Source: Gammaproteobacteria bacterium (GTDB lineage Bacteria; Pseudomonadota; Gammaproteobacteria; CAJXQU01). Taken from it: a DNA stretch of 64,000 bases. Location of the stretch: assembly GCA_026984775.1 (NCBI GenBank), contig JALSRM010000037.1:49604-113603 (forward strand), written 5' to 3'. Both the position numbers and the translations under genes were made by a program. Of this stretch, positions 12,300 through 48,929 are shown in pieces. Under the pieces are notes generated by a model, which saw only the letters and a list, made by a program, of their open reading frames with translations, searched no databases and had not been told where the DNA came from. How positions within the stretch are numbered: the first letter of the stretch is position 1; each line of letters begins with the position of its first letter.

Positions 12300-13334
12300 A
12301 TGAGATTTAACATACTCGATTTGATACGGTTTAGCGCCGCTCTCGGTGTCGTTTTTTATCACTATACTTCAGGTGAATCTGGAGCTCCTTTTGGTGTTCT
12401 TGCTGAGTTTACAAAATTTGGTTATCTGGGAGTTCCTTTGTTCTTCATGATCAGCGGGTTTGTGATCAGCGCATCTGCACTCAATCGTACCCCATCCGAG
12501 TTTGTTATTTCACGTTTAACCCGTTTGTATCCAACCATCTTCGTTTGTCTCACGCTAACTACACTGGTCATTCTGACTCTTGGAAAGGACAATATCTCTC
12601 TGTTCCAGTATTTGACCAACCTGACGGTGCTCAATCTCTATGCTGGGCAACCTTTTATTGATGGTGTGTACTGGACACTGCTCGCTGAATTGAAGTTCTA
12701 TTTTTGTGTGTTCTTGCTGTTGACAGCGGGATGGTTCCATAAATTCAAAATCTGGTTATCCATTTGGATGGTGATGACAATCACCTTCCTTTTGTTCAAA
12801 CAGCCTTTTTTCATGGGGTGGTTCATTAGCCCTGAGTATTCTGCATTTTTTATCGCAGGTGTTGCTTTTTTCATGGTTACAAGGCAGGGCTACGACAAAT
12901 ATTATTCCGGCTTGCTGCTGCTTGCCTTGATCGTTGGTCTTGTTAGGGCATATGAACAAGCAGGCAGTTTTTTACACGACACGACCGAAGCCGATCGTAT
13001 GATCGCTGTTATACTCACCGGGGGATTCTTCTTGCTGTTCTATCTTATCTCGATAGAGCGTGTCAAAATTAGGGGCAACTCAATGATTCTGCTGCTGGGA
13101 GGGATGACCTATCCTCTCTATTTGCTCCATAGCAAAGTGGGGAGTATCCTCGAAGCGCAACTCAGGGAATACCTGAATCCTCATATAACGGTGGTTTTCT
13201 TGGTGATCCTGATGTTATTTTTATCTGCCATGATTCATATTTATGTGGAAAGGCGCTATGCAAATCCGATCAAGATCTGGCTCATCGATCGTGCCAATAG
13301 CCTCAAAGGAGAGCACATAAAGGTTTCTTCTTGA
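12300..13334 (+). CDS. Acyltransferase family 3 (OafA/YrhL-like) integral membrane protein
   Basis: N-terminus MRFNILDLIRFSAALGVVFYHY and about 10 hydrophobic helices. Confidence 0.7.
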   Translation: MRFNILDLIRFSAALGVVFYHYTSGESGAPFGVLAEFTKFGYLGVPLFFMISGFVISASALNRTPSEFVISRLTRLYPTIFVCLTLTTLVILTLGKDNISLFQYLTNLTVLNLYAGQPFIDGVYWTLLAELKFYFCVFLLLTAGWFHKFKIWLSIWMVMTITFLLFKQPFFMGWFISPEYSAFFIAGVAFFMVTRQGYDKYYSGLLLLALIVGLVRAYEQAGSFLHDTTEADRMIAVILTGGFFLLFYLISIERVKIRGNSMILLLGGMTYPLYLLHSKVGSILEAQLREYLNPHITVVFLVILMLFLSAMIHIYVERRYANPIKIWLIDRANSLKGEHIKVSS

Positions 13335-13348
13335 GTAGATGAGGAAGT

Positions 13349-13391
13349 ATGAATTGTAGCCATATTCTGAATGAATATGACTACAATTCAT
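13349..13391. terminator. Perfect 11-bp inverted repeat (ATGAATTGTAG...CTACAATTCAT) with 21-nt loop between convergent genes
   Basis: Read directly from the sequence; lies between the acyltransferase stop (13334) and the glcG-like stop (13401); no clear T-tract. Confidence 0.4.
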
Positions 13392-13400
13392 GATCAGGTC

Positions 13401-13796
13401 TTACAGGGCATCAACGCCAGCCTGGGCGATTTGTCCATCCTGGAAAGATTGGACACCACTGACACCGATGGCACCCACAATTTCATCATTGTGGACCAGC
13501 GGCAAACCTCCTTCGATCGGTAACATACCTTTCAGAGCCAGATAGCCCTGCCGTCCGTCTGCGACCGTCTGTTCCCAGAACTTGGTCGGACGACGGAACA
13601 TCAGAGCGGTTTTTGCCTTGGTAATGGCAACGTCGATACTTCCCAGCTGTACCTTTTCACGTTGGAGGTACATTAGGTGCCCTCCATCATCAACGATAGC
13701 GATCACGACATTCCAGTTATTACGTTTTGCCTCCGCTTCCGCAGCAGCGGCAACTCGTTTGACGTCATCTAGACTCAAGATTTCTTTACTGTACAA
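13401..13796 (-). CDS. GlcG/HbpS-like (DUF336) haem-binding protein family
   Basis: 131 aa with the GAIGVSGV motif; immediately downstream of malate synthase G, as glcG follows glcB. Confidence 0.7.
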   Translation of the reverse strand: MYSKEILSLDDVKRVAAAAEAEAKRNNWNVVIAIVDDGGHLMYLQREKVQLGSIDVAITKAKTALMFRRPTKFWEQTVADGRQGYLALKGMLPIEGGLPLVHNDEIVGAIGVSGVQSFQDGQIAQAGVDAL

Positions 13797-16598: not shown

Positions 16599-19500
16599 TC
16601 AACTGTCGGCTTCATCATATCCAAGATTTGGTGCGAGCCAACGTTCGATAGTGGAAATATCCATGCCCTTGCGTCTGGCGTAATCCTGGATTTGATCACG
16701 ATTGAGCTTGCCCACACCGAAGTAACGTGATTCAGGGTGTGAAAAATACCAGCCACTGACAGCCGCTGTTGGTACCATGGCATAGTGCTCGGTCAGGGTA
16801 ATCCCTGTATTTTTCTCAACATCCAGCAATTCCCAGAGCAGGGGTTTTTCGGTGTGATCAGGACAGGCCGGATAACCAGGCGCTGGTCTTATGCCCTGGT
16901 ATTGTTCGGCTATCAAAGCGTTATTGTCGAGGTGCTCATCCGGAGCGTAGCCCCAGAATTCTGTACGCACTCGCTGATGCATCCTTTCGGCAAAGGCTTC
17001 GGCCAGCCGATCAGCCAGTGCTTTGAGCATGATAGCACTATAATCATCGTGATCCGTTTCGAATTCAGCGAGTTTGTTTTCCATCCCAAAACCGGTGGCA
17101 ACGGCAAAGGCACCAATATAGTCCTCTACGTGCTTTTCCTGAGGGCCAATGAAATCGGCCAGTGCATAGTTGGGCTGACCCGGCGGCTTGCGTGTCTGCT
17201 GACGTAGAGAATGGATGACCATGAGTTCACCATCACGATTCTCACTGCTATAGATCTCGATATCGTCATCACCTATGGTGTTTGCGGGGAAGAGGCCTAT
17301 CACTCCTCTTGCAGTGAACCATTTTTCTTCAATGATCCGATCGAGCATGTGCTGGGCATCCTGATAGAGTTTGGTTGCTTCTTCTCCCACCGATTTATCT
17401 TGCAGAATACGCGGAAATTTCCCGGCCAGTTCCCATGCTATGAAGAAGGGTGTCCAGTCGATATATTCTCGTAACTCGGCAAGGGAGTAATCTTCGAATA
17501 CATGGATACCCGGTTGTTTCGGAACAGGAGGTGTATAACTGGACCAGTCGATGGGTGTTTTGTTTTCGCGTGCCTGATCCAGTGTCAGCCATTCGGTTTT
17601 TGACTGTCTGCCCTTATGACGTTCACGCACCATGTCATATTCCTTTTTAAGTTCCTGGACTAACTCTTCCTTCATCTCCACATTCAGAAGCCGGGTAGAG
17701 ATACCTACAGCGCGTGAAGCATCCTTTACATGAACAACCGGATGGTCGTAGTTCGGGTCGATCTTAACGGCCGTATGAGCTCTTGAGGTCGTAGCACCGC
17801 CTATCATCAGTGGCAAAGTGAATTCCTGCCGTTGCATTTCCTTGGCAACATGAACCATCTCATCAAGGGAAGGGGTGATAAGCCCACTGAGGCCAATCAG
17901 ATCGGCATTCAATTCCCGGGCCTTGTCGAGGATGGTTTGTGCAGGCACCATGACTCCAAGATCAATGACTTCAAAATTGTTGCACTGAAGAACGACACCG
18001 ACGATATTTTTTCCAATATCGTGCACATCCCCCTTGACGGTTGCCATGATAATCTTACCGTTTGTCTGGGTCTCGCCTGCTACCTTTTCCGCTTCGATAT
18101 AGGGCAACAGATAGGCAACTGCCTTCTTCATGACCCTTGCACTCTTGACGACCTGGGGCAGAAACATCTTCCCTGCACCAAACAGATCACCCACGACATT
18201 CATTCCCTCCATCAGAGGGCCCTCAATGACATCCAAAGGCTTTTCTGCCTTTTGACGGGCTTCTTCAGTATCTTCCTCGATAAATTCCGCGATACCTTTG
18301 ACCAGAGCATGTGTGATCCGCTCCTGAACAGTACCTTTTCGCCACTCCAGATCTGCTTTTCTTTCTTTTGTTCCACCACTTTCAGCCTTGAATCTTTCGG
18401 CGAACTCGACCAATCGATCGGTGGCATCAGGTCGACGATTCAGAAGCACATCTTCAATCCGTTCCAACAGATCATCCGGGATTTCATCGTAGATGCCGAG
18501 CTGACCAGCATTGACAATAGCCATATCCAGTCCTGCCTGGATGGCGTGGTAAAGGAAAACCGCATGCATAGCCTCTCGCACAGGAGTGTTACCACGAAAT
18601 GAAAAGGAGACGTTACTTAACCCCCCGCTTACCAGTGCGTAGGGTAAATGCTCCTTGATGAGTCGTGTGGCCTCAAAGAAGGAAACCGCATAGTTGTTGT
18701 GCTCTTCCATACCCGTTGCCACGGTGAGCACATTGGGATCAAAGATAATATCCTCAGGTGGGAACCCGACCTGGTTAACCAGCAGGTTGTAGGATCGCTT
18801 GCAAACCTCGAAGCGGCGTTCAGTGGTGTCAGCTTGTCCTTTTTCATCGAAAGCCATTACCACCACGGCAGCGCCGTAACGTCGAACCAGTTTGGCTCGT
18901 TCCAGAAACTTTTCCTCACCTTCCTTTAGGCTGATCGAGTTGACAATTGGCTTTCCTTGTACACAACGCAGGCCTGCTTCAATGACAGACCATTTTGAGG
19001 AATCAATCATGACCGGAACACGACTGATATCCGGTTCTGAGGCAATGAGGTTGAGAAAATCCTGCATCAGTTGCGCGGAATCGAGCATGCCCTCATCCAT
19101 ACAAATATCAATGATTTGAGCACCATTTTCCACTTGTTGACGGGCAACTTCCAAAGCAGCATCTAAATCCTGTTCTTCCTTGATTAAGCGCAGAAATTTG
19201 GGGGAGCCGGCAACATTGGTCCGCTCTCCTACATTTACAAAATTGACATCAGGTGTGATATTGAAAGGTTCGAGACCGGAGAGGCGCTGTACAATCGGCA
19301 GATCCGGTATTTTCCTGGGGGATATGCCCTCAATGGCTTCTGCCATAGCGCGGATATGATCCGGTGTTGTGCCACAACAGCCACCAACGATATTGAGCAG
19401 ACCGGCTTCAGCCCATTCGTGGATATGCTTGGACATTTCCGGCGCTTCCAGATCATACTCACCGAATTCGTTGGGAAGTCCGGCATTAGGATGGGCACTA

Positions 19501-20312
19501 ACAAAGGTTTCCGAGAACGAAGCCAGTTCTTCAACATACTGGCGCAAATCTGCCGGGCCTAGGGCGCAGTTTAAGCCAATGGATAAGGGTTTCGCATGAC
19601 GCAGTGAGTTATAAAAGGCCTCGACGGTTTGACCGGTCAATGTCCGGCCGGATGCATCTGTGATAGTGCCAGAGATCATAATGGGTAAGCATATGTTCTG
19701 CTTTTCGAAATACTGATCAATAGCAAAAAGGGCGGCTTTGGCATTCAAGGTATCGAAAATGGTTTCGACCATCAGGATATCGACACCTCCTTCAACCAGG
19801 CCCCTGACTGCATCTGTATAGGCCTCGACCAGTTCCATGAAAGTGATGTTCCGGTAGCCCGGGTTATTGACATCAGGAGAAATGGAACAAGTTCTGTTGG
19901 TTGGTCCGAGTACACCGGCGACATACCGGGGTTTAGATGGATCAGAAAACGTGAACTCATCCGCGACCTCTCGGGCCAGCATGGCTCCTGCCAGATTCAG
20001 TTCATAGGCCAGTTTTTCCTGTTGATAATCAGCCAGGGCGATGGAAGTGGAGTTGAAACTATTTGTCTCAACGATATCCGCACCAGCCTCAAAATAGGCA
20101 CGATGGATCGATTTGATAATCTCTGGTTGAGTCAATGACAGCAGATCATTGTTGCCTTTTACATCACAGGGATGGTCAGCGAAACGCTCCCCACGGTAAT
20201 CGGCTTCTTCCAGGTTATAAGACTGGATCATCGTCCCCATTGCGCCATCCAGCAGCAGGATTCGTTCCCTCAGGGAGCAGTGAAGATGAGCCAGTCTTTT
20301 TTCGCGATTCAT
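16599..20312 (-). CDS. metH: Cobalamin-dependent methionine synthase
   Basis: Hcy-binding, pterin-binding, B12-binding (DxHxxG region) and AdoMet activation domains all recognisable; start set at [10 protein letters not shown]...[15 protein letters not shown], which aligns with the E. coli MetH N-terminus; the ORF track start at 20423 is rejected. Confidence 0.95.
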
Positions 20313-20430
20313 AGAGTTTTTGGATCGGTGATTGTTTATCAAAACGCTCAATTTTACATTGATTTGATGTATATGACTAAAATTAACTGTAATTTCACAC
20401 TTGATAGACAGAATCTTATCCAATAATTAG

Positions 20431-20494
20431 CCATTACTAATATTACTAATTTATAATATATGTTGCATAAAAAATTAGTGAATGCTAATATTAG
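20431..20494. promoter_or_regulatory. Divergent metH/arsR promoter region with direct repeat ATTACTAAT x2, a TATAAT box (20452-20457) and the palindrome CTAATATTAG (20485-20494)
   Basis: Repeats and palindrome read directly from the sequence; the palindrome is the expected ArsR/SmtB-type operator geometry. Confidence 0.4.
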
Positions 20495-20505
20495 AGAAGA
20501 CGAAT

Positions 20506-20802
20506 ATGAACGTTAATGAAATGGAAAAAAATGCAAAGGAGGCCTCAAATCTGCTGAAGTCTCTGGCCAACCCTAACCGGTTAATGGTGCTCTGTCACCT
20601 CAGCAAAAACGAATGCACAGTTGGAGAGCTGGAAAAACTTGTTGGATTAAGCCAGTCGGCATTATCCCAGCATCTGGCCAGACTGAGAGAAGAAGAGATT
20701 GTCGAATGCAGAAGGGAAGCCCAAAGCATGCATTATTCCGTCAGGGATGAAAAGACAAAGAAATTACTAGAATCGTTGTATGAACTGTATTGTAACACCT
20801 GA
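20506..20802 (+). CDS. ArsR/SmtB-family transcriptional regulator, possibly SqrR/BigR-like (Cys in helix alpha2 and near the C-terminus)
   Basis: wHTH region ...VGELEKLVGLSQSALSQHLARLREEEIV...; Cys in VLCHL and in C-terminal ELYCNT; start taken at the second ATG (20506) because the first (20482) sits inside the palindrome and lacks an SD. Confidence 0.7.
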   Translation: MNVNEMEKNAKEASNLLKSLANPNRLMVLCHLSKNECTVGELEKLVGLSQSALSQHLARLREEEIVECRREAQSMHYSVRDEKTKKLLESLYELYCNT

Positions 20803-20850: not shown

Positions 20851-21057
20851 ATGAACATCGATCGCATGGTTTTTGCAATTGCTGGTACTTTTATACTAGT
20901 CAGTTTAGCCCTTTCACAGCTTCATTCGATCTATTGGTTGTGGTTTACAGCCTTCGTCGGGGCAAACATGTTGCAGGCAGCTTTTACAGGTTTCTGCCCG
21001 CTCGCAAAGATACTGGCTAAGTTGGGTATAAAGTCAGGCTGTGCCTTCCAAGAGTAA
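20851..21057 (+). CDS. DUF2892 (YgaP-like) small inner-membrane protein
   Basis: 68 aa with two TM helices and a conserved C-terminal Cys ([13 protein letters not shown]); this family commonly follows ArsR/BigR-type regulators. Confidence 0.6.
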
Positions 21058-21067
21058 ACGAACATAG

Positions 21068-21628
21068 ATGAAACAAGCAGGACTTGTCTTTACCTTTCTA
21101 CTTTCACTGGCTGTTCAGGCGGAACCTGTGGTGAACTATGAGAAGGAAGCCGAAGCAGTGGCTGGCCAATTGCTCAAAGAATTGGGTTCTGCCTTAAAAA
21201 AACAGATTCAGGAAGGCGGGCCTGAACAGGCAGTAAAGGTATGTTCGGAACTGGCGCCCGAGATTGTAAACCGCCTTTCAATAGAGAAGGGTTGGAGAAT
21301 CACACGAGTAGGGACGCGTGTAAGAAACCCGCTACTTGGAACCCCCGACCGCTGGGAACAAGAAGCTCTTGCCTATTTTGAGCGACGCGCAGCCGGCGGA
21401 AACGATCTGAAAGATATGAGTTACTCAGAGATTGTCGAAGAGCCTGCTGGTCGCTATTTTCGGTACATGAAGCCTTTGGTGATCAAACCCTTGTGCATGA
21501 TTTGTCATGGTGAGGCTTCCCAGATTCCTGACACCATAAAGAAGACCTATCCTCATGACAGAGCAACTGGTTATCATGTCGGAGATTTGAGAGGTGGAAT
21601 TGTTATTAAACGACCATTGTCTGAATGA
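21068..21628 (+). CDS. Periplasmic DUF3365 (Tll0287-like) protein with c-type haem motif
   Basis: Signal peptide MKQAGLVFTFLLSLAVQA; a single CxxCH (CMICHG); size and pattern of DUF3365 haem sensor-like proteins. Confidence 0.55.
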   Translation: MKQAGLVFTFLLSLAVQAEPVVNYEKEAEAVAGQLLKELGSALKKQIQEGGPEQAVKVCSELAPEIVNRLSIEKGWRITRVGTRVRNPLLGTPDRWEQEALAYFERRAAGGNDLKDMSYSEIVEEPAGRYFRYMKPLVIKPLCMICHGEASQIPDTIKKTYPHDRATGYHVGDLRGGIVIKRPLSE

Positions 21629-21660: not shown

Positions 21661-21684
21661 GGCCCCATATGGGGCCTTTTTTAT
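21661..21684 (+). terminator. Rho-independent terminator GGCCCCATATGGGGCC + TTTTTTAT
   Basis: GC-rich hairpin plus T-tract immediately after the DUF3365 stop. Confidence 0.8.
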
Positions 21685-21753
21685 GTAATGTTGGATGTTA
21701 TGATTTAGCCTGTATAGGAGTATGCGCTCGAAATTTAGTCTCTTTAAGAGGAT

Positions 21754-21779
21754 TCTATAGATCACATTTTTTCTATAGA
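21754..21779. promoter_or_regulatory. Two copies of the palindrome TCTATAGA spaced 18 bp centre-to-centre, about 90-115 bp upstream of the 21869 gene
   Basis: Read directly from the sequence: TCTATAGAtcacatttttTCTATAGA. Confidence 0.3.
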
Positions 21780-21868
21780 ATAATACTCTGAATAACAAGT
21801 AGATAAATTTATTAGTTGTAGTAAACTCTCATACGATTAAACAACGATAGCAAGGAAATCCTGAACGC

Positions 21869-22996
21869 ATGACCAATCCTGACGGGAAAAGGACGGTTCT
21901 TGTAAACCTGATCGGAATCGATCAACGCAACCGGAATGTTATCGAAATGGTCTTCGAACGGGAATTCGACAACTCTTTTTCCCTTGGGAATACAGGTTCA
22001 GCAGATCTGAGTATCGTCGATCTGGACAAATATGGTGCTGAAGAGGAATGGTCAGCACTGCAACAGGCAAAGTCTGATCAGCTTGCGGTTCTCATGTCGA
22101 TAGATGAAAAACACAGGTCGCCAAATCATCTTTTTATCAAAAAACCTGTAACGATTGCTGATCTGGTTACTGCACTCAACAAGGCAAGGAATAAACTCGT
22201 TACAGGGACTTTTACACCGGAAAAAAAACAATACTCTTGGCGAAATATTTTTACTCCTCGTCTCTCAATAAAGAAAAAGAGAAGTACAGGTTCTGAACAC
22301 AAGAAAGAATCAACGAAATCTGATGCCATCAGATACCTTAGTGAGAAAGGTTATCTGATTGATGAAGTCAAAAAAGCCGTATTACTAGCAAATACGGAAG
22401 GCCATGGTATCAAGCTGCAAATTAACAATCAGGGAAGTATTTTTATTGATCCGACTGAACATTGGATCAATACCGATTTAACCCCTGAAGGTTTGAAGGA
22501 CCTGTGCGAGAGACCGATCGAACGCTCAGATTTTATGAAGCGTGTTTTCAGTGATCGGGAGTTTTCGAAGTATCTCGAGGAGTGGCGAGATACTCGTCTG
22601 AAACCAATAGATATAGATGCCTTTCTCTGGGATCTGGCATTGTGGACATATGATGGTGCATTACCTGCGGGTACTGACCTGAAAAAGAAAATCGTTCTCA
22701 GCTACTGGCCTGATCTGCCCCGGTTTACGCCTGTTCCGAATGCCATGCGGATTGCTGCACTTTGGGTTTCATGCCCCATGACCTTGCTTGAGACCAGCGA
22801 GGTACTCAAGATTTCTATGGAAGATGTCATCCGTTTTTACACGGCTGTGTCAAGTCTGGGATTGATCAAGGACGGAAGTCAGAACGAGAATCCCGGTAAT
22901 CAGCCTGAACTGAGTAGAACAACCGTTAGATCAGAGAAAAACAAAAGAGAACTCTATCTCCGTATAATCAAATATCTCAAAGGGCAAAATTCCTGA
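21869..22996 (+). CDS. Hypothetical protein: N-terminal receiver (REC)-like domain plus C-terminal domain of unknown function with an HTH-like end (DUF742-like?)
   Basis: N-terminus resembles CheY-like receivers (hydrophobic strand TVLVNLIG, candidate acceptor Asp in LSIVDLDKYG, conserved K-P in LFIKKPVT); the C-terminus ...TLLETSEVLKISMEDVIRFYTAVSSLGLIKDG resembles a small wHTH; no confident family assignment. Confidence 0.5.
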   Translation: MTNPDGKRTVLVNLIGIDQRNRNVIEMVFEREFDNSFSLGNTGSADLSIVDLDKYGAEEEWSALQQAKSDQLAVLMSIDEKHRSPNHLFIKKPVTIADLVTALNKARNKLVTGTFTPEKKQYSWRNIFTPRLSIKKKRSTGSEHKKESTKSDAIRYLSEKGYLIDEVKKAVLLANTEGHGIKLQINNQGSIFIDPTEHWINTDLTPEGLKDLCERPIERSDFMKRVFSDREFSKYLEEWRDTRLKPIDIDAFLWDLALWTYDGALPAGTDLKKKIVLSYWPDLPRFTPVPNAMRIAALWVSCPMTLLETSEVLKISMEDVIRFYTAVSSLGLIKDGSQNENPGNQPELSRTTVRSEKNKRELYLRIIKYLKGQNS

Positions 22997-22998
22997 TA

Positions 22999-23958
22999 AT
23001 GGAAATAACAAAACAAAAATCGTTGCCCACTGATTCTCATCTCGATGATTACAGAATCCAGAAATGCATTTCAGTTTCAGACGAATTTGTTACCTATCTG
23101 GCCATTGATCAACAGCTGGAATTGCAACTAATTATTACGGAGTACTTTCCTAGTGAAATCGTCTATAGAATGGATAACGGTACTGTTCATGTGAAAGAGC
23201 CGAGGCGAATTGCTGAATTTTTGGATAAGCTCAATGAGCTTCATAAACGAGTTAAAGCGAGGGTGTCTCGAAATGACAAGGGAGTCGACAATGTTATTCG
23301 TTTTCTTTTTTTCAATGGAACTGCTTATGTTGTCTCAAAATACAGTACCCGAACGGATTTGGATCGTTATCTCTCGGAAATGAACCTGACGATCCAAGGT
23401 AGTGAGTTATCGGGGTGTACAGGTAAAGACTCATTATGTCAGAAGGTAACGATCGAAAACAGTATCGTCTTTACTGGTTTTGCACGAGCAGGCAAGTCAA
23501 CAGCGATCAGGTTACTGAGTGACGGTGACATGATCGATAAAGAATCAGGTCTGGCTTATGGGAAACTGGGGACCGGTAGTCTTGAGATCTATTTGTTGGA
23601 ACTGTCCGCTGATCATTTTGAAAACTGTTTGAAAGCTGAACCAATGGGTTACGTCTTGCTGATCGATAACAGCAGAAAGGATCCTTTTAATCACCTTGAT
23701 TATTTTCTTGACAAAATGGACGAACATCGACTGGAAAATGTCGTGATCGGCATCACACATACTGATCAATCCAGGATTCCATCGATCCCTGATTATCATC
23801 TTCATCTTGAAAACAGATCTATCAATTCACGCAGAATATGCCCTATCTTCTCTGTTGATCCACGGAACAGGTCCGATGTGACCATGCTCATCAAGGCACT
23901 TATTTACTCTCATGATCCACTTCTGTCAGACATTTTTTTTGAAGACACGATCCTTTGA
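22999..23958 (+). CDS. Hypothetical P-loop NTPase, small-GTPase-like C-terminal domain with N-terminal domain of unknown function
   Basis: Walker A GFARAGKST; then a hhhhD box (VLLIDNSR) and GITHTD resembling the [N/H/T]KxD G4 motif of MglA/Rag-type GTPases; the start is coupled 3 bp after the upstream stop. Confidence 0.5.
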   Translation: MEITKQKSLPTDSHLDDYRIQKCISVSDEFVTYLAIDQQLELQLIITEYFPSEIVYRMDNGTVHVKEPRRIAEFLDKLNELHKRVKARVSRNDKGVDNVIRFLFFNGTAYVVSKYSTRTDLDRYLSEMNLTIQGSELSGCTGKDSLCQKVTIENSIVFTGFARAGKSTAIRLLSDGDMIDKESGLAYGKLGTGSLEIYLLELSADHFENCLKAEPMGYVLLIDNSRKDPFNHLDYFLDKMDEHRLENVVIGITHTDQSRIPSIPDYHLHLENRSINSRRICPIFSVDPRNRSDVTMLIKALIYSHDPLLSDIFFEDTIL

Positions 23959-24058
23959 AAAATATTTTTCTTCAAAGAGTTAATTCCCGCTGATTGAAGT
24001 AATTTGTTTACCGGCCGATACAGGTTGCGATATGGATTGATTCCGGGGTTTTATTTCC

Positions 24059-24421
24059 ATGCGTGAAGACATGCTTGTTTCGATATTGAATGAATTGAAT
24101 GGATCGACTGTCGACATCCAGGGATCGGCCGTTATTTCTATTGACGGATTATTGATCGCCAGTGCATTACCGACGAGTTTTGACGAAGAAATGGTAAGCG
24201 CAATGACAGCGGCAATGTTGATGCTTGGGGAGAGGACCGCCAGAGAACTACAGCGTGGTGAACTTGAGCAGGTGATTGTCAAGGGCCGTCTGGGTTATGT
24301 GATCATGGTCCGATCTGGTCCGGAATCTGTTCTTTGTGTACTTGCCCGTCCTGATGCCAAATTGGGGCTCGTACTGCTGGATGCAGCACGAGCCGCCGAA
24401 GATATTCCAAAGGTATTATGA
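24059..24421 (+). CDS. Roadblock/LC7 (MglB-like) domain protein
   Basis: 120 aa; IQGSAVISIDGLLIAS...EEMVSAMTAAMLMLGERTA...GYVIMVRSGPESVLCVLARPDAKLGLVLLD fits the Roadblock/LC7 fold pattern closely. Confidence 0.7.
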   Translation: MREDMLVSILNELNGSTVDIQGSAVISIDGLLIASALPTSFDEEMVSAMTAAMLMLGERTARELQRGELEQVIVKGRLGYVIMVRSGPESVLCVLARPDAKLGLVLLDAARAAEDIPKVL

Positions 24422-24437: not shown

Positions 24438-25712
24438 CTAACCACAGTCCAGTTTTGTTATCCCCAACAATTTCAGGAACTGCCGCTCATAGTAGGGATC
24501 TGTCTTCCCGGTTTTTACCTTCCGCAGATGATATTTCTCAAACATCACTTTTGCTGCATGAACCCATTTTCCCTGTTTTGCCCAGGTTACGTTTCGTGGA
24601 GGGATCTGTGGCATGGCGACAAAGGCAATACCTGAATCCCCCATATCTGCAAGGCAGATGGCGTTCCATGTTGCTGTGTGTGAAGGTTGTTTGCCATTTA
24701 GAAGTTCTGCAATATTTCCAACGGTTGCACACACCATGGATTCGATCATATACCCGGTTTTGGGCACACCCGTAGGCACAGGTGTTGTCTCGGGCGGGGC
24801 AATAGCAATGCAGACACCTGCAGCAAAAATATTGTCATACGTTGGATTCCGCTGGTATTCATCGACGATAATAAAACCTCTAGGATTGACCAGGCCTTCG
24901 ATACCCATGACTGCATCAATTCCGGTAAAGGCGGGCAGAATCATGGAATAGTTGAAAGGGAGTTCATGTTTTTTCTTTGTTTCACCATTGTCATCGACTT
25001 CGGTGATAAACATGGTATTTTCTTCAATTTTGTCGATTTTTGCGTTGGTAATCCAGTTGATATGTCGATCCCGGAGAACGCCTTCCAGTAAATCCTTTGA
25101 ATTGCCGACACCACCCAGTCCCAGATGGCCGATATAAGGCTCCGAGGTGACGAATGTCATCGGTACCTTGTGTCGTATTTTTTTCTTTCGTAATTCAGTA
25201 TCGGCAATGAAGGCATACTCATAAGCGGGGCCAAAGCAGGATGCAAGTTGGGCTGCTCCAACAATCATCGGCCCGGGGTTCTCAACAAATTTATCCCACT
25301 CTTTGGCTGCTTCTACTGCATGATCAACGTGGCAGATTGATTTCGTAAATCCGTCAGGCCCTAATCCTGGAATTTCATCGAAGGCCAGGCGTGGACCTGT
25401 TGTGATCGCGAGGTAGTCATAGGTGACCTCGGTGCCATCTTCCAGTTCTATACGGTTTTCATCTGGATGCAGGCGTTTCGCAGCTTTGGGGATGAAGTCA
25501 ATATTTTTCCTTTCGAGGTAGGGCTTTAATTCAACCTTGATGTTATCAGGTGTTCTCCAGTTAACGGCAACCCAAGGATTGGAAGGTACGAAGTGGAACG
25601 TAGGACTGTCTGAAATCAATGTCACCTGATCATTCGGTCCTGCCTTTTCACGCATTTCATAAGCGAGTGTTGTACCAGCGATTCCGCCCCCGAGAACGAT
25701 TATTTTTGCCAT
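24438..25712 (-). CDS. sqr: Sulfide:quinone oxidoreductase (FAD-dependent pyridine nucleotide-disulfide oxidoreductase family)
   Basis: N-terminal FAD fold IVLGGGIAGTT; about 425 aa; SQR-typical segments (VPSNPWV, the Cys-containing loop GVCIAIAPPETTPVPTGVPKTGYMIESM). Confidence 0.8.
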   Translation of the reverse strand: MAKIIVLGGGIAGTTLAYEMREKAGPNDQVTLISDSPTFHFVPSNPWVAVNWRTPDNIKVELKPYLERKNIDFIPKAAKRLHPDENRIELEDGTEVTYDYLAITTGPRLAFDEIPGLGPDGFTKSICHVDHAVEAAKEWDKFVENPGPMIVGAAQLASCFGPAYEYAFIADTELRKKKIRHKVPMTFVTSEPYIGHLGLGGVGNSKDLLEGVLRDRHINWITNAKIDKIEENTMFITEVDDNGETKKKHELPFNYSMILPAFTGIDAVMGIEGLVNPRGFIIVDEYQRNPTYDNIFAAGVCIAIAPPETTPVPTGVPKTGYMIESMVCATVGNIAELLNGKQPSHTATWNAICLADMGDSGIAFVAMPQIPPRNVTWAKQGKWVHAAKVMFEKYHLRKVKTGKTDPYYERQFLKLLGITKLDCG

Positions 25713-25792
25713 CTTCTGACCTCCAGGATTCCCATTTTTTAATGTAGTATTGTAGTGTAAATAAATTTGTTTGCATTCAATATAAGATAGTG

Positions 25793-25818
25793 CTAATATA
25801 AGAAAGATCTTATATTAG
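25793..25818. promoter_or_regulatory. 10-bp perfect inverted repeat CTAATATAAG-n6-CTTATATTAG in the sqr/MMPL divergent intergenic region
   Basis: Read directly from the sequence; shares the half-site TGCTAATAT with the palindrome at the arsR-family gene (20485-20494). Confidence 0.45.
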
Positions 25819-25832
25819 GAAAGGGTAACAGA

Positions 25833-28493
25833 ATGTCATCTAAAAAATCAAGCTGGTTAATCGATTGGGCTGTAGCGAGACCAAGATTTTTTACCTGGTT
25901 GATGGTGTTTTCCACATTTTTACTGATTATACTCGCAGCAGTGCCCAGTATCTGGCCGGAAAAGGTGCCTGCCTTACATAGCATCGAGGTTGATACCGAC
26001 CCGGAAAACATGCTCCCTGCAGATGAACCGGTCCGTCTCTTTCACAATGCTGCAAAGAAAGAATTTTCGCTCAATGACATTGTTGTGGTGGGAATTGTCA
26101 ACGATAAGCATCCAGAAGGTGTTTTCAATCCAGAATCATTACAACGGGTTTATGACCTGACTGAATTCGCAAAAACACTCCAGTGGTCTGATAAAGAAGG
26201 TAAACATGGTGTAGTCGAGATCGATATTATTGCGCCTTCCACGGTGGACAACATTGAGCAGGGAGGCATGGGTGTGGTCAATTTCAGTTGGTTGATGCCT
26301 CGACCACCCAAGACTCAGGAGGAAGCGCTTTCTATCCGTGAAAGAGCCATGAATATTCCTTTTCTGAAGGGAACCATGGTAAGCGAGGATGGCAAGGCAT
26401 TGGCTATCTATTTGCCCTTGGTAAGCAAGCATGATTCCTATGAAGTCCGCAAGGCATTACTGGGTTTTATAAAGGAGTGGGACGGTGATGAGCAGGTACA
26501 TATTACAGGACTACCTGTGGCTGAAGACACCTTCGGTGTCGAAATGTTTACCCAGATGGCAATCTCCGCCCCCCTTGCCATGCTTGTGATTTTTGTACTT
26601 CTGTGGTGGTTCTTCAGAAATTTGACACTGATTGTATCTCCCATGATCGTTGCCATGGTCAGCGCCCTTTCTACCATGGCCTTGCTGGTTATCACGGGTA
26701 ATACGATCCATATCATGAGTTCCATGATACCCATCTTTATCATGCCGATTGCCGTCCTTGACTCAATTCATATTCTCTCGGAGTTTTTTGATCGCTACCC
26801 TCAAATCAGGGATCGCAAGAAGACCATCATTGAGGTCATGAAGCATCTTTTTACACCGATGCTGTTTACCTCCGTGACAACAATGGCGGGTTTTGCGTCA
26901 CTGGCTTTAACTCCGATACCTCCTGTCCAAGTGTTTGGAATATTTGTTGCAATCGGAGTGTTCCTGGCCTGGTTCTGGACCATTGTCTTCATTCCTGCTT
27001 ATGTGATGCTGATGCCGGAGGCAAAGCTTGAAGGGTTTGGTCAATCTGTATCGGATAGTGGAGATACTACAGGCATGGCCAAATTTCTCCATGGACTTGG
27101 AAAATGGACACATGACCATCCTAAAACTGTTCTTGCAGTTACCTTTTTGTGTGTGCTTATTTCTGTCTATGGCATTAGCAGGATCCAGATTAATGATAAT
27201 CCAATCAAGTGGTTTGAGCCGGATCATCCTATCAGAGTCGCAGACAAGATCCTGAACGAACACTTTGGTGGAACCTATATTGCCTATTTGCAATACGAGG
27301 CAGACGATAAAGGACTTTCCGTGGACAGTTACATTACTGAATTGGAGCAACGCCTCGAGCAATGGAAAGCACAGGTATTGGCTGATGAATATGCTCAGGT
27401 GGAGGCTGTCTATACAAAAGCTGTTCAGCTTATGAAAGAAACCCAGGCCGAGTCCATCGAAGATTATCTGTCAAAGCTTCAAGGCAGGGTCAATGATCTC
27501 ATGGATCATGCTTCTGATGAAGAGTACGATACTTGGTCCGAGCTGGCATTATTCTTTGACCGAGAGGATCAAAGAAACGAGGTTTTCAAACAACCCGAGG
27601 TACTTCGATATCTCTCCAGGTTGCAGGACTTTCTTTTGCAGACTGGTGTCGTAGGCAAGGTCAATGCTTTACCCGATATCATCAAAACCGTACATCGTGA
27701 ACTGTTCCTTGGCGATGCTGATCATTTCCGTATTCCGGATAGTGTAAATGGTGTCGCGCAAACTCTGATTACTTATCAAAACAGTCATCGACCTCAGGAT
27801 TTGTGGCATTTCGTCACTCCAGATTACAAGAAAAGTAATCTGATGTTGCAACTCACCAGTGGTGACAACAAGGACATGGAAAAAGTTATTGCGGCAGTAG
27901 CAGATTTCGAAGAACAGAATCCGCCCCCAATGGCCTTGAAATCAAACTGGTTCGGACTTACTTATATCAATGTGATTTGGCAGGATCATATGGTACAAGG
28001 TATGCTGAAATCATTTATGGGCAGTTTCGTCATCGTTCTGTTAATGATGGTGTTCCTGTTCCGTTCAGCCTTGTTTGGTATTCTGTCCATGATCCCTCTG
28101 ACGGTAACGGTTGGCCTTATCTATGGTGTGATTGGCCTGATTGGAAAAGATTACGATATGCCTGTTGCCGTACTCAGCGCATTGAGTCTTGGGCTTGCGA
28201 TCGACTATGCGATTCATTTCCTTGCACGTTCACGGGAGGCTGTACGCGAAACCGGAAATTGGCACAATGCGGTAGATGTTGTCTTTGGTGAACCCGCTCG
28301 TGCGATCACAAGGAATGTGATCATACTTGGAGCTGGTTTTCTGCCATTGCTCGCCGCCCCGCTTGTGCCATATCAGACGGTAGGCTTTTTTATCGCTTCC
28401 ATACTGGTTTGTGCAGGTATTGCAACATTATTGATTTTACCTTCTGCCATGACATTACTTGAGAAGTATCTCTTTAGAGGAGAATTATCATGA
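25833..28493 (+). CDS. MMPL/RND-superfamily transporter (12 TM, two large periplasmic loops; HpnN/MmpL-like exporter)
   Basis: 886 aa with two hydrophobic bundles separated by soluble loops, an architecture typical of RND/MMPL; followed by LolA-like and outer-membrane-barrel genes. Confidence 0.75.
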   Translation: MSSKKSSWLIDWAVARPRFFTWLMVFSTFLLIILAAVPSIWPEKVPALHSIEVDTDPENMLPADEPVRLFHNAAKKEFSLNDIVVVGIVNDKHPEGVFNPESLQRVYDLTEFAKTLQWSDKEGKHGVVEIDIIAPSTVDNIEQGGMGVVNFSWLMPRPPKTQEEALSIRERAMNIPFLKGTMVSEDGKALAIYLPLVSKHDSYEVRKALLGFIKEWDGDEQVHITGLPVAEDTFGVEMFTQMAISAPLAMLVIFVLLWWFFRNLTLIVSPMIVAMVSALSTMALLVITGNTIHIMSSMIPIFIMPIAVLDSIHILSEFFDRYPQIRDRKKTIIEVMKHLFTPMLFTSVTTMAGFASLALTPIPPVQVFGIFVAIGVFLAWFWTIVFIPAYVMLMPEAKLEGFGQSVSDSGDTTGMAKFLHGLGKWTHDHPKTVLAVTFLCVLISVYGISRIQINDNPIKWFEPDHPIRVADKILNEHFGGTYIAYLQYEADDKGLSVDSYITELEQRLEQWKAQVLADEYAQVEAVYTKAVQLMKETQAESIEDYLSKLQGRVNDLMDHASDEEYDTWSELALFFDREDQRNEVFKQPEVLRYLSRLQDFLLQTGVVGKVNALPDIIKTVHRELFLGDADHFRIPDSVNGVAQTLITYQNSHRPQDLWHFVTPDYKKSNLMLQLTSGDNKDMEKVIAAVADFEEQNPPPMALKSNWFGLTYINVIWQDHMVQGMLKSFMGSFVIVLLMMVFLFRSALFGILSMIPLTVTVGLIYGVIGLIGKDYDMPVAVLSALSLGLAIDYAIHFLARSREAVRETGNWHNAVDVVFGEPARAITRNVIILGAGFLPLLAAPLVPYQTVGFFIASILVCAGIATLLILPSAMTLLEKYLFRGELS

Positions 28494-29299
28494 AACGATT
28501 AACAGTACTTTTGATATCACTGTTTTTGGCTGCCTCTGCCATTGCTGCAGATCCCACGATCGAAGAGATCGTGAACAGGGCAAATCTTGCAACTTACTAT
28601 CAAGGAAAGGATGGACGTGCGCATGTGAAAATGACTATTACGGATAGCCAGGGACGAAAACGTATGCGCAAGCTCACCATTCTGCGTTGGGATCAGCCCG
28701 ATACGGATGAGCTTGAAAATGGCGCTTATCGTGGAAAGCAGAAATTCTATGTCTACTTCTCGCGTCCTGCAGATGTCAACAAAATGGTATTCCTCGTTTG
28801 GAAGAATCTAGACAAGGATGACGATCGCTGGTTATATCTCCCAGCGCTTGATCTTGTTAAGCGAATAGCCGCTTCTGACAAACGAACGAGTTTTGTAGGG
28901 TCTGACTTCTTCTATGAAGATGTTTCCGGCCGTGATATTGATGAAGATGAGCATGAGCTGTTGAAGACAACGGATAAATATTTCGTTATCAAGAATACGC
29001 CAAAAGATCCATCTTCCGTTGAGTTTGCCTATTACATGATGTATATCCACAAAAAAACGTTCCTCCCGATCCAGGTGGAATACTACGATGCGCAGGATAA
29101 GAAATATCGTGTCGCTAAGGCATTGAAGGTGGAAAATATCCAAGGTCATCCAACCGTAACCAAGGCAAGTATGGAAAGCCTCAATCAAGGTAGCAAGACT
29201 GTAATGGAATACTCCTCAGTAAAATATGATACAGGGATTCCTGAAGATATTTTTACTGAAAGGTATTTACGAAAACCGCCTAGAAAATATCTTAAATAA
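28490..29299 (+). CDS. Outer-membrane lipoprotein-sorting (LolA-like, DUF1329-type) periplasmic protein
   Basis: Signal peptide MKRLTVLLISLFLAASAIA; 4-bp overlap with the MMPL gene; this family commonly accompanies MMPL transporters. Confidence 0.65.
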   Translation: MKRLTVLLISLFLAASAIAADPTIEEIVNRANLATYYQGKDGRAHVKMTITDSQGRKRMRKLTILRWDQPDTDELENGAYRGKQKFYVYFSRPADVNKMVFLVWKNLDKDDDRWLYLPALDLVKRIAASDKRTSFVGSDFFYEDVSGRDIDEDEHELLKTTDKYFVIKNTPKDPSSVEFAYYMMYIHKKTFLPIQVEYYDAQDKKYRVAKALKVENIQGHPTVTKASMESLNQGSKTVMEYSSVKYDTGIPEDIFTERYLRKPPRKYLK

Positions 29300-29301
29300 C
29301 C

Positions 29302-30798
29302 ATGCGTTTGTTACTTCCTGTTTTACTGATATCTTCTTTTAGCGTTCTGGCCCAGGCCGGAGAGCCAGCCCTCCCTGAAGGTCTTGAAGAGTTTGAGAGT
29401 CCATCTTTGGATGAACCTGCTCTGCCTGAAGGTTTGGCTGACGACTCAGCAGCTTCTGATGAAGCGGAACTGCCAGGAGGTATTGAAAGGGGTAACAAAA
29501 TACCCACTTCAGCTCAAGAACCGGAATTGCCGGAAGGACTTGGCGAAGAGACATTAGTAGAAGAGGGTTTTGAGGCTGGTTCAGATAAGGAGGGTTTTGC
29601 CGATCTCTCCGGATTTTGGGAAGTTCGCCTTGGCACAAGAACTCAGGATGATCGTTTTGAAGACGATCGTTCGATCACAGAAACACGTTTGCAGTTTGAT
29701 CTGGAGCACACTCTGGGCTTATTCAACCTTCACCTGGTGAGTGATCTTGTCTATGATGATCTGGCAGACACTCATGAAATCAAACTGGAAACCGGCCAAG
29801 GCTGGATTGATTTACGTGAGGCTAATCTCTCTTTCACACCAACGAGCTTCATGGATGTGAAGATTGGTCGTCAGATCTTGACCTGGGGCACAGGTGATCT
29901 GCTATTCATCAACGATCTTTTCCCGAAAGACTGGCAGGCTTTTTTCATAGGTCGAGACGTAGAATATCTGAAAGCCCCATCGGATGCCTTTAAACTGGCC
30001 TTTTTCAGTGGTGTGATGAACCTCGACCTTGTCTATACCCCTCGCTTTGATACAGATCGTTTTATCAACGGGAGCAGGATTTCCTATTTCAGTCCACTGG
30101 CAGGTGGTATTGCAGGACAGAATTCGGTGATCGATGCTGTCAATCCTGATAATACATTTACCGATGATGAACTGGCAATTCGTCTGTACAGAAACTTTGG
30201 TGCCATTGAAACAGCTTTTTATGCATACAATGGTTTCTGGAAGAGTCCGGGGGGATTTGATCCACTGACAGGCAAGGCTGTTTTCCCTGATCTGCGTGTC
30301 TATGGTGCGAGTCTGCGGAGTCCTGTAGGGAAGGGTATTGCAAACCTCGAGATAGGATACTATGACTCTAGGATGGACAGGAACGGTACTAATCCATTTA
30401 TAAATAACAGTGAATTTCGACTGTTGATCGGATACGAAAGGGAAATCGCCAAAGAGTTGACCATGGGTCTCCAATATTATCTGGAACGTATCTCCGATTA
30501 CAGTGCCTATGAGGCCAGTCTGCCGTCCGGTTTTCCGACCAGGGATCACAACCGGCACTTGTTTACTTTGCGTCTGACCAAACTGACACATAATCAGAAT
30601 GTGATCTGGTCTGTTTTTGCGTATGCATCTCCATCGGACAAAGATTTCTATCTGCGTCCACACGTGACCTATAAGATCGATGATCATTGGACGATGGAAG
30701 CAGGAGGAAATATTTTTGGTGGTGAACGAGAATATACCTTTTTCGGTCAGTTTCAGGAGAATACCAACCTCTACGCTGCAATACGCTATAGTTTCTGA
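29302..30798 (+). CDS. Outer-membrane beta-barrel protein (DUF1302-like) with N-terminal Pro/Glu-rich ALPEGL repeats
   Basis: Signal peptide; repeats (E)PALPEGL x4; alternating amphipathic beta-strand pattern; C-terminal ...AAIRYSF ending in Phe, the outer-membrane-protein signature. Confidence 0.6.
   Translation: MRLLLPVLLISSFSVLAQAGEPALPEGLEEFESPSLDEPALPEGLADDSAASDEAELPGGIERGNKIPTSAQEPELPEGLGEETLVEEGFEAGSDKEGFADLSGFWEVRLGTRTQDDRFEDDRSITETRLQFDLEHTLGLFNLHLVSDLVYDDLADTHEIKLETGQGWIDLREANLSFTPTSFMDVKIGRQILTWGTGDLLFINDLFPKDWQAFFIGRDVEYLKAPSDAFKLAFFSGVMNLDLVYTPRFDTDRFINGSRISYFSPLAGGIAGQNSVIDAVNPDNTFTDDELAIRLYRNFGAIETAFYAYNGFWKSPGGFDPLTGKAVFPDLRVYGASLRSPVGKGIANLEIGYYDSRMDRNGTNPFINNSEFRLLIGYEREIAKELTMGLQYYLERISDYSAYEASLPSGFPTRDHNRHLFTLRLTKLTHNQNVIWSVFAYASPSDKDFYLRPHVTYKIDDHWTMEAGGNIFGGEREYTFFGQFQENTNLYAAIRYSF
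29355..29560 (+). repeat. Four imperfect tandem copies of a 30-60-nt unit encoding [PE]-[AE]-LPEGL inside the outer-membrane-protein gene
   Basis: gccctccctgaaggtctt / gctctgcctgaaggtttg / gaactgccaggaggtatt / gaattgccggaaggactt seen directly in the sequence. Confidence 0.6.
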
Positions 30799-48450: not shown

Positions 48451-48929
48451 CCATTACTGCTGTACTCTTGGTTTCGTCAGCACTGGTACTTGCAAAGCCA
48501 GTTGATGGAAAGTCTTTTGATGACTGGACCGTACGCTGTGAGAAACATCATGGGCAAAAAAGCTGTTTCATCTATCAGAATCTCGTCCTGCAGGGTGCCG
48601 GTAGCCGACTTCTGCATATAGCCGTGGGGTATCTTCCCGGGGAAAAGCAGGTGCCTGTAATCCTGGTTTCTATGCCGCTGGGAATATCCCTACCCCCCGG
48701 TGCCAGCATTCGTATTGATGATAATGAACCCATACGTTTTCAGATCGAACGCTGTGAACCTCAAGGTTGTCGTGGTGGTTTTAAGCTCAGTAAGGAGATG
48801 CTTAAGATGTTTAACCAGGGCAAAACGGCCACGGTAATCTTTCATGACGGTAGACGGAAAGCGATTGAAGTGCCACTCTCTCTGAAAGGTTTTTCCGAAG
48901 GGTTGAAATCCCTGCGAAACCAGACTTAG
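48435..48929 (+). CDS. Invasion-associated locus B (IalB)-like periplasmic protein
   Basis: Signal peptide MQKKITITAVLLVSSALVLA; WTVRCEKHHGQKSCFIYQ and CEPQGCRGGF, the IalB-family conserved Cys pattern. Confidence 0.55.
   Translation: MQKKITITAVLLVSSALVLAKPVDGKSFDDWTVRCEKHHGQKSCFIYQNLVLQGAGSRLLHIAVGYLPGEKQVPVILVSMPLGISLPPGASIRIDDNEPIRFQIERCEPQGCRGGFKLSKEMLKMFNQGKTATVIFHDGRRKAIEVPLSLKGFSEGLKSLRNQT

Follow-up and report, generated by a model that had tools for sequence, protein, structure and literature searches.

Several members of the ArsR family of regulators act as dithiol persulfide sensors, and, as published for SqrR, YgaV, and HlyU, persulfide or polysulfide gives rise in them to an intramolecular polysulfide bridge that abolishes DNA binding. 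The SqrR protein of Rhodobacter capsulatus represses sqr and other targets, its sqr box reading ATTC-N8-GAAT, and BigR (Xylella, Agrobacterium) is a repressor too, with an AT-rich, palindromic box lying across the -10 region of a sulfide-detoxification operon; both proteins bind over core promoters. The same holds for YgaV of Escherichia coli, the DNase footprint of which on the ygaV promoter covers the transcription start and the sigma-factor recognition elements, at a site that has been read as SqrR-like ATTC-N8-GAAT (PMC9774250). Vibrio cholerae HlyU binds a 29-mer from hlyO at 4e8 per M and is released from it by glutathione persulfide (PMC10509353), and NolR of Sinorhizobium, which has no cysteines, recognizes the consensus (A/T)TTAG-N9-A(T/A) (PMC8960804). 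Here, we consider a palindrome at positions 25793 to 25818 of a 64-kb stretch of DNA (the window) from an uncultured gammaproteobacterium, located between an sqr gene and the divergently transcribed gene for an RND exporter, and we argue that it is probably one unit of an operator array for a regulator of this kind, encoded in the same stretch at 20506-20802.

The palindrome, CTAATATAAGAAAGATCTTATATTAG (that is, CTAATATAAG-AAAGAT-CTTATATTAG), occupies the 120-bp gap between sqr on the minus strand (24438-25712), whose 424-amino-acid (aa) Pyr_redox_2 product is a presumed sulfide:quinone oxidoreductase (SQR)-like flavoprotein, and the gene for an MMPL/HAE3 RND pump on the plus strand (25833-28493), just where a sequence-only reading of the window had located it, between gene starts at 25712 and 25833. 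That reading had described two 10-bp arms around 6 nucleotides (nt); the repeat is indeed perfect, but a repeat search gave 11-nt arms (25793-25803 and 25808-25818) with 4 nt between them. Perfect inverted repeats of such size occur about four times in the window, so none of them is particularly rare in itself, and the case for this one therefore rests on the sharing of its motif and on conservation. As for sharing, TGCTAATAT is present in the window only at 20483 and 25791, where 0.42 copies are expected and 6 of 100 shuffled sequences reach two, and TGCTAATATTAG, at 20483-20494, ends 12 nt 5' of the ATG (20506) of the ArsR-family gene. All five CTAATAT heptamers of the window lie inside the arsR and sqr/MMPL promoter regions, which, when the arsR and MMPL promoters are aligned in register, are identical at 31 of 48 positions, a level reached by about 3e-5 of AT-rich 48-mer pairs drawn from the window.

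What the regulator is predicted to recognize is a core of 14 bp, TWAG-N6-CTWA, copies of which follow one another in tandem at 16-bp intervals. The 26-bp palindrome as a whole was rejected as the recognition unit, since relatives keep 14-bp TWAG-N6-CTWA units in a 16-bp register, and its candidacy is weakened further by the fact that the stronger, invariant unit is its neighbor, M1 (25783-25796; TAAG-ATAGTG-CTAA), located between the -35 and -10 elements of the candidate MMPL promoter. The palindrome itself is made up of unit M2 (core 25799-25812; TAAG-AAAGAT-CTTA) plus the CTAATAT and ATATTAG junctions on either side. Because the units stand head to tail every 16 bp, the CTAA-TA-TTAG junctions between them resemble small palindromes; thus, while the sequence match to the arsR promoter that the sequence-only reading drew is real, CTAATATTAG, read there as a half-site or palindrome, marks where two neighboring units meet. 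TGCTAATAT, in turn, is the right half both of M1 and of unit A4 (20475-20488; TTAG-TGAATG-CTAA), which fills the -35/-10 spacer of the candidate arsR promoter, and it makes up an extended -10 box (TGnTAATAT) at the same time. One 16-bp step on from A4 comes A5 (20491-20504; TTAG-AGAAGA-CGAA), which separates the arsR -10 box from the start codon, and two distal units lie farther upstream, A1 (20427-20440; TTAG-CCATTA-CTAA, an exact TTAG-N6-CTAA match) and A2 (20443-20456; TTAC-TAATTT-ATAA). A weak third unit at sqr/MMPL (25815-25828; TTAG-GAAAGG-GTAA) keeps the 16-bp register and overlaps the ribosome-binding site of the MMPL gene; at 7.5 bits, it scores within the chance range, is not conserved in the three closest relatives (L001 to L003), and is probably nonfunctional.

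Scores were obtained with a weight matrix built from sites upstream of metagenome ArsR homologues, with the window excluded. The six best matches in the window, at 20475 (A4, 21.3 bits), 25783 (M1, 20.7 bits), 20427 (A1, 16.5 bits), 25799 (M2, 15.2 bits), 20491 (A5, 14.8 bits), and 20443 (A2, 14.7 bits), all fall in the two promoters and in exact 16-bp register. The simulated expectation for sites of at least 14 bits is 0.067 per 64 kb; when a Markov model is trained on the AT-rich sequences of the two regions themselves, it remains as low as 0.058 in their 202 nt. The next match, at 13069 (10.3 bits), lies within a coding region and in the chance range. By pattern, exact TTAG-N6-CTAA occurs twice in the window, both times at the arsR promoter, and of the five TWAG-N6-CTWA matches, four are in the two promoters; M2 (TAAG...CTTA) fits only this degenerate form. 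As further regulon members in the window, the match at 13069 (coding and at chance level) and the fifth TWAG-N6-CTWA copy, at 48791 (outside the top 25 of the matrix), were both rejected. A check for a motif that is simply common, run over the 64-kb window only, accordingly found TGCTAATAT and the best matrix matches confined to the two promoters.

Among metagenome ArsR homologues, exact TTAG-N6-CTAA is found 15 times in the 10.2 kb near their starts (130 nt at each of 79 loci), compared with 3 times in the remaining 574 kb, an enrichment of 281-fold; with one mismatch allowed, 28 of the 79 loci carry a site. The sites are often tandem, 15 or 16 bp apart, and linked by CTAA-(A/TA)-TTAG.

The regulator encoded at 20506-20802 (plus strand; 98 aa) belongs to the YgaV/HlyU/SqrR/BigR type. 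It contains an HTH_5 domain (3.7e-15; residues 22 to 67) and scores 85.8 bits against a cutoff of 55 with the model for ArsR winged helix-turn-helix proteins (NF033788). Its matches in the PDB are HlyU (2.8e-24), SqrR (7.5e-22), BigR (1.1e-21), YgaV (1.7e-20), and NolR (5.7e-20), and its identity to E. coli YgaV amounts to 41%, both cysteines being aligned. These residues, Cys30 in helix alpha2 (LMVLCHL) and Cys96 at the C terminus (ELYC), also align with the cysteine pairs of HlyU and SqrR, as expected for a sensing pair, and both are retained in nearly all of 80 metagenome ArsR homologues. Recognition helix alpha4, QSALSQHLA, is identical in PDB alignments to that of V. cholerae and V. vulnificus HlyU. 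By computation, the top-scoring sites fall both on the regulator's own promoter and on that of sulfide-metabolism genes, at arsR and at sqr/MMPL. On the plus strand, the arsR operon continues with genes for a YgaP-like transmembrane protein (20851-21057; ygaP_TM) and for a periplasmic Tll0287-like protein that carries a signal peptide and a CMICH heme motif (21068-21628), and it ends in a terminator-like hairpin with a T-run (21661-21686).

Conservation was assessed in relatives found with the SQR protein, a search that returned 580 of them; 80 (64 to 89% identical) were kept, their loci adding up to 1.35 Mb. Closest among these 80 are three Gammaproteobacteria metagenome-assembled genomes (MAGs; L001 to L003) that retain the sqr/MMPL arrangement, with SQR proteins in L001 and L002 that are 87 to 89% identical. 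At the position of M1, all three have the perfect palindrome TTAGCA-AG-TGCTAA, and AGTGCTAATAT of M1 is invariant in the window and the three relatives. At M2, too, a unit is conserved: L001 and L002 share TTAG-TCAAGT-CTTA, and L003 has TTAT-AAACGT-CTAA. In addition, L002 has both a counterpart of A4 (TTAG-CAACTA-CTAA) and a distal site at the equivalent place. Exact TTAGCA-NN-TGCTAA lies 5' of sqr in L001, L002, L003, L005 (Methylococcus capsulatus), and L008, with six exact copies in the whole 1.35 Mb, and sites or tandem pairs stand 5' of sqr or arsR-sqr in L006, L007, L029, L064, and L066. Overall, the motif was found 5' of sqr, arsR, arsR-sqr, or MMPL homologues in dozens of unrelated genomes. 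One exact TTAGCAAATGCTAA was seen elsewhere, 7.5 kb from sqr in a Methylococcus MAG (L013:2546-2559), flanked by a MogA/MoaB-like gene and by a gene for a TolC-like outer-membrane protein, the latter apparently at the head of another efflux operon.

The pump gene is followed on the plus strand by genes for a LolA_like/TP_0789-like periplasmic protein (28490-29299; LolA_like, 2.7e-59) and for a putative outer-membrane protein (29302-30798; 498 aa, with a signal peptide and a faint DUF1302 match of 22.9 bits against a cutoff of 23.2). The pump itself scores 179 bits with TIGR00921 (HAE3), against a cutoff of 352, and matches the MMPL, Patched, and Sterol-sensing Pfam domains. MMPL homologues at 60 to 65% identity are widespread, and eight loci (L162 to L169; Porticoccaceae, Marinobacter, Nitrospira/Manganitrophaceae, and metagenome lineages) were sampled by MMPL homology alone. 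The trio of pump, LolA_like/TP_0789-like protein, and outer-membrane protein of about 490 aa recurs in all eight and in L081, and its neighbors among the eight, which span distant taxa, include ygaP_TM in seven, an SQR-like Pyr_redox_2 gene in five, and arsR in four. In L162 to L164, arsR-sqr-ygaP_TM diverges from the MMPL, TP_0789-like, and outer-membrane genes, and the same three genes likewise diverge from the MMPL operon in L064, which, together with L081, provides two further cases of linkage between exporter and sulfur genes. In Marinobacter (L165), arsR diverges from ygaP_TM and the exporter trio; in L166, two ygaP_TM genes and a CMD gene precede the trio, with a Lactamase_B-rhodanese gene nearby; in L167, metH, ygaP_TM, and sqr diverge from it; in L169, genes for a Tll0287-like protein and ygaP_TM do so, and a Pyr_redox_2 gene comes after the trio; and in L168, the trio has no sulfur gene nearby. 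Sites of 16 to 25 bits lie directly 5' of the pump gene in six of the eight loci (L162, L163, L164, L167, L168, and L169), the last three of which carry this operator without an adjacent arsR gene. Because the eight loci were chosen without regard to the motif, these sites would independently confirm the predicted membership of the RND operon in the regulon. The proposal that sqr/MMPL and arsR share an operator marking a regulon, made originally from the window, is supported by every comparative test that we ran.

The operator units are interlocked with the candidate promoters. For the MMPL gene, a candidate sigma-70 promoter (25771-25799, plus strand) has a -35 element TTGCAT (25771-25776), a 17-nt spacer, and a -10 element TAATAT (25794-25799) preceded by TG (25791-25792); the candidate proximal arsR promoter (20463-20491, plus strand) repeats this pattern with TTGCAT at 20463-20468, a 17-nt spacer, and TG-preceded TAATAT at 20486-20491. 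TTGC and TGCTAATAT are invariant at the MMPL promoter in the four genomes, and the L002 arsR promoter has TTGCAA-17-TAATAT at the equivalent place. A second candidate arsR promoter (20428-20457; TAGCCA-18-TATAAT, 10/12 in the promoter scan) is overlapped by A1 and A2. For sqr, a candidate on the minus strand (25839-25812) combines ATGACA (25839-25834), a 16-nt spacer, and TAATAT (25817-25812), with a 9/12 match to the consensus, and would start near 25805, inside M2; an alternative on the same strand, between the sites and sqr (25761-25734; TTTACA-16-AAAAAT), matches equally at 9/12. In L001 and L002, the sqr promoter (TTGACT-18-TAATAT) overlaps the units, and the window has lost this TTGACT -35 element. 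In the tandem pairs of relatives, TTGACT is often found as a -35 element within the N6 of one unit, with TAATAT marking the outer edge of the following unit, so that a promoter with 17-nt spacing is encoded by two 16-bp units, as in L006:9608-9637, L007:9846-9875, L164:5918-5963, and L001:3724-3753. In divergent regions, one tandem array serves both strands.

We propose that the 20506-20802 product is a dithiol persulfide sensor of the SqrR/BigR/YgaV/HlyU group and that each dimer would read one 14-bp TWAG-N6-CTWA unit, with ATATTAG-N6-CTAATAT as the extended consensus. At both promoters, the best unit would fill the -35/-10 spacer, with its right half, TG-C-TAATAT, serving as the extended -10 box, and the next unit would cover the start region. 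The reduced repressor would then exclude RNA polymerase from the arsR-ygaP_TM-Tll0287 and MMPL promoters, and probably from that of sqr too. Sulfane sulfur formed upon exposure to sulfide might bridge Cys30 and Cys96 and release the repressor. Sulfide oxidation by the sqr product would then be switched on, and the exporter operon and the genes for the YgaP-like and Tll0287-like proteins would be expressed along with it.

How does this putative operator compare with those described? The E. coli ygaV promoter contains TTAG-AGTTTA-CTTA-AT-TTAG-AAAATA-CTTA (L161:1175-1204), two units 16 bp apart that bracket the mapped start 28 nt before the ATG; they score 14.7 bits (L161:1175) and 22.7 bits (1191) and are the only sites of at least 11 bits in that 5-kb stretch. 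The footprinted region may be better described as TTAG-N6-CTWA than as ATTC-N8-GAAT. The two loci further resemble each other in that the regulator and then a YgaP-type membrane protein open the operon, behind an autoregulated promoter with tandem units; however, E. coli YgaP adds a rhodanese domain to the transmembrane part, which is all that the window encodes, and neither sqr nor an RND operon adjoins the E. coli genes. The hlyO 29-mer contains TTAA-TTCAGA-CTAA-AT-TTAG, and HlyU is the closest solved homologue of the window's regulator, with an identical recognition helix and the same cysteine pair, although it activates a virulence gene from an upstream site, whereas the sites in the window overlap core promoters of sulfide-metabolism genes. 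NolR (DNA complexes 4OMZ and 4ON0) is of the same ArsR subgroup, and its consensus, asymmetric as it is, amounts to a loose form of ATTAG-N6-CTAAT; it is matched at 20426-20441 and 20474-20489 on both strands, at 20490-20505 on one strand, and at 25782-25797 on the minus strand, but with 22 matches in the window against 31.7 expected, it is not enriched. We rejected this loose pattern as a statistic, as too degenerate, and consider it useful only as a compatibility check.

SqrR shares with the window's regulator the placement of the cysteine pair, in helix alpha2 and at the C terminus, and its box shares with ATTAG-N6-CTAAT a 16-bp palindromic span in which the outer ATT...AAT coincides. Its recognition helix differs (QAAVSQQLA, versus QSALSQHLA), and ATTC-N8-GAAT is absent as such from the window; with one mismatch allowed, it is found 41 times against 48.6 expected. 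An SqrR-type box was rejected for the two intergenic regions, which hold only one-mismatch matches, at 20490-20505 (the place of A5) and 25728-25743. BigR, finally, supplies the best NCBIfam model for the regulator, with a score below the equivalog cutoff, and the window does not contain the operon that BigR targets (blh, for a fusion of persulfide dioxygenase and rhodanese).

Could the shared motif be promoter architecture and nothing else? On that view, the two promoters would simply be alike (TTGCAT-17-TGnTAATAT), and facing divergent -10 boxes would produce the symmetry, with no repressor involved; TGCTAATAT does suit an extended -10 box, with TTGCAT 17 nt upstream at both promoters, and TAATAT stands in each arm of the palindrome, the minus-strand copy within the 9/12 promoter match. 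We find this quite improbable, for it leaves unexplained the symmetric left half-sites TTAG(CA), which form perfect TTAGCA-NN-TGCTAA in six genomes, as well as distal units A1 and A2 (20427 and 20443), the 281-fold enrichment, which is specific to this ArsR clade, and the presence of the motif in operators bound in vitro by HlyU and YgaV. Promoter and operator functions overlap here and are not mutually exclusive. The symmetry might also belong to a nucleic acid hairpin, either in the 5' untranslated region of an RNA or as a DNA cruciform, instead of to a protein site, and the RNA fold of -10.9 kcal/mol (z = -4.2 versus shuffled sequences) would fit such a structure. Yet the changes between the window and L001/L002 are noncompensatory (arm position 8 is A here and T in L001, with the partner base unchanged), each arm merely staying within TWAG or CTWA; the stem is almost all A-T, and its equivalent in L001 pairs at 7 of 10 positions; and either candidate promoter starts inside the repeat, so that neither mRNA would hold both arms. 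A hairpin therefore seems to us scarcely credible.

Two further alternatives accept the sites as real operators and differ as to the protein or its mode of action. In place of the 20506 protein, the binder might be an HlyU/BigR-like paralogue encoded outside the window, or an unrelated protein that binds AT-rich DNA: the window covers 64 kb of the genome, V. cholerae possesses both HlyU and BigR, and the stretches analyzed from L005, L167, L168, and L169 contain the motif but no arsR gene, so that regulator and target need not adjoin. We nevertheless consider a different binder unlikely, given that the strongest sites lie on the regulator's own promoter, the usual autoregulatory layout of the family, that the motif accompanies ArsR homologues sharing this recognition helix at 28 of 79 loci, and that L064 and L162 to L164 have arsR in physical linkage with sqr and MMPL. 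If, on the other hand, the regulator worked in the manner of Vibrio HlyU, its closest solved homologue, it would be an activator or antisilencer in an AT-rich region that resembles H-NS targets. This is highly improbable in our view, because, in the window and its relatives alike, the best promoter candidates have their -35/-10 spacer, -10 box, and start region overlapped by the sites, the layout reported for YgaV on ygaVP (PMC9774250).

Several points weigh against the interpretation of the palindrome as part of an operator array for the 20506-20802 regulator. The support for it is comparative throughout, and the window was the sole part of the genome scanned; transcription starts at arsR, MMPL, and sqr are predicted ones. 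The regulator's score with the BigR model (NF040642), 102.4 bits, falls short of the equivalog cutoff of 155. The training sites of the weight matrix had been preselected by the TTAG-N6-CTAA pattern, and a protein-operator covariation test on the 80 metagenome ArsR homologues was discarded as uninformative, all of them having been retrieved by a peptide pattern that includes SQSALSQH and hence sharing the helix. In the window, the sqr/MMPL units are TAAG/CTTA variants, and the left half of M1 has three mismatches to the perfect palindrome of L001 to L003, which suggests that its affinity may be lower. Conservation of TGCTAATAT, moreover, might partly reflect promoter function alone, given its second role as an extended -10 box. 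Lastly, the assignment of the sqr promoter is uncertain: if the alternative at 25761-25734 were the one in use, the sites would sit upstream of it, and simple occlusion would fail for sqr.

As to what the exporter trio might do, its closest described counterpart is AmeABCD of Castellaniella defragrans, which exports apolar compounds (PMC6394551) and comprises an HAE3 pump, a LolA-superfamily periplasmic protein, and a DUF1302-like outer-membrane protein, parts that the window's trio may share. The two systems differ in gene number (four, versus three in the window) and gene order, in the periplasmic protein, which in the window is TP_0789-like and not a full DUF1329 protein, and in context, AmeABCD being linked to terpene catabolism and the window's trio to sqr/ygaP and a persulfide-sensor operator. 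In the literature that we searched, no description of a link between sqr and an RND operon was found. We tentatively suggest, while regarding it as doubtful, that the trio is a dedicated persulfide-inducible envelope exporter for the hydrophobic, zero-valent sulfur that SQR generates (S8, polysulfide, or organic persulfide), under the control of a YgaV/HlyU-like repressor through TTAG-N6-CTAA; sulfur as its cargo is speculation.

Some other features of the window and of related loci deserve mention. The Tll0287-like protein with its CMICH heme-c motif recurs beside arsR/ygaP_TM or the RND operon in L146, L149, L158, and L169 and may be a periplasmic heme protein of the same sulfide module. Upstream of arsR and divergent from it lies metH (methionine synthase; 16599-20423), a gene that also adjoins sulfide genes in the unrelated locus L167 (1-3131); because the NCBIfam alignment begins at residue 39, its reading frame probably starts near 20312 rather than at the TTG at 20423. 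In 10 loci (L099, L109, L110, L122, L129, L132, L136, L137, L149, and L150), the arsR start lies only 6 to 8 nt past a -10-like TAAATT, which suggests leaderless or nearly leaderless mRNAs for these genes; for arsR in the window, the gap between the -10 element and the start codon is 14 nt, with no clear Shine-Dalgarno sequence. Between the arsR operon and sqr (21869-24421) are three nonsulfur genes, encoding a 375-aa protein without a Pfam match, a 319-aa protein with a P-loop-like GFARAGKST and a weak FIST match, and a Roadblock/LC7 protein (6e-16). Together they look like a small-GTPase/MglB-like module, which is absent from the relatives, where arsR, sqr, and the RND operon adjoin. A second perfect inverted repeat, ATTCTATAGA-n10-TCTATAGAAT (21752-21781), in the AT-rich gap past the terminator of the arsR operon and 5' of the 375-aa reading frame, is a possible operator of this module. 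Finally, a 19-nt inverted repeat (13349-13391; 95% complementary, with a 5-nt loop) between the convergent reading frames 12300-13334 (plus strand) and 13401-13796 (minus strand) is a likely bidirectional terminator.

In itself, an ArsR-family persulfide-sensor repressor that controls sqr from a NolR/HlyU-type operator is a known and ordinary kind of switch. Of more note here are the family-wide definition of the operator and the conserved, apparently undescribed coupling of an RND operon to sqr. The YgaV/HlyU-like operator is sharpened to a TTAG-N6-CTAA core in tandem arrays of 15 or 16 bp, interlocked with sigma-70 promoter geometry, and, because this core differs from the ATTC-N8-GAAT reading now applied to YgaV, it would make regulon prediction possible across many genomes. 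For this uncultured gammaproteobacterium, the result is a readable sulfide-response circuit, with a predicted sensor, operator, and targets, and an RND export apparatus tied to sqr and to that operator bears on how nonsulfur bacteria dispose of the sulfane sulfur that SQR makes.

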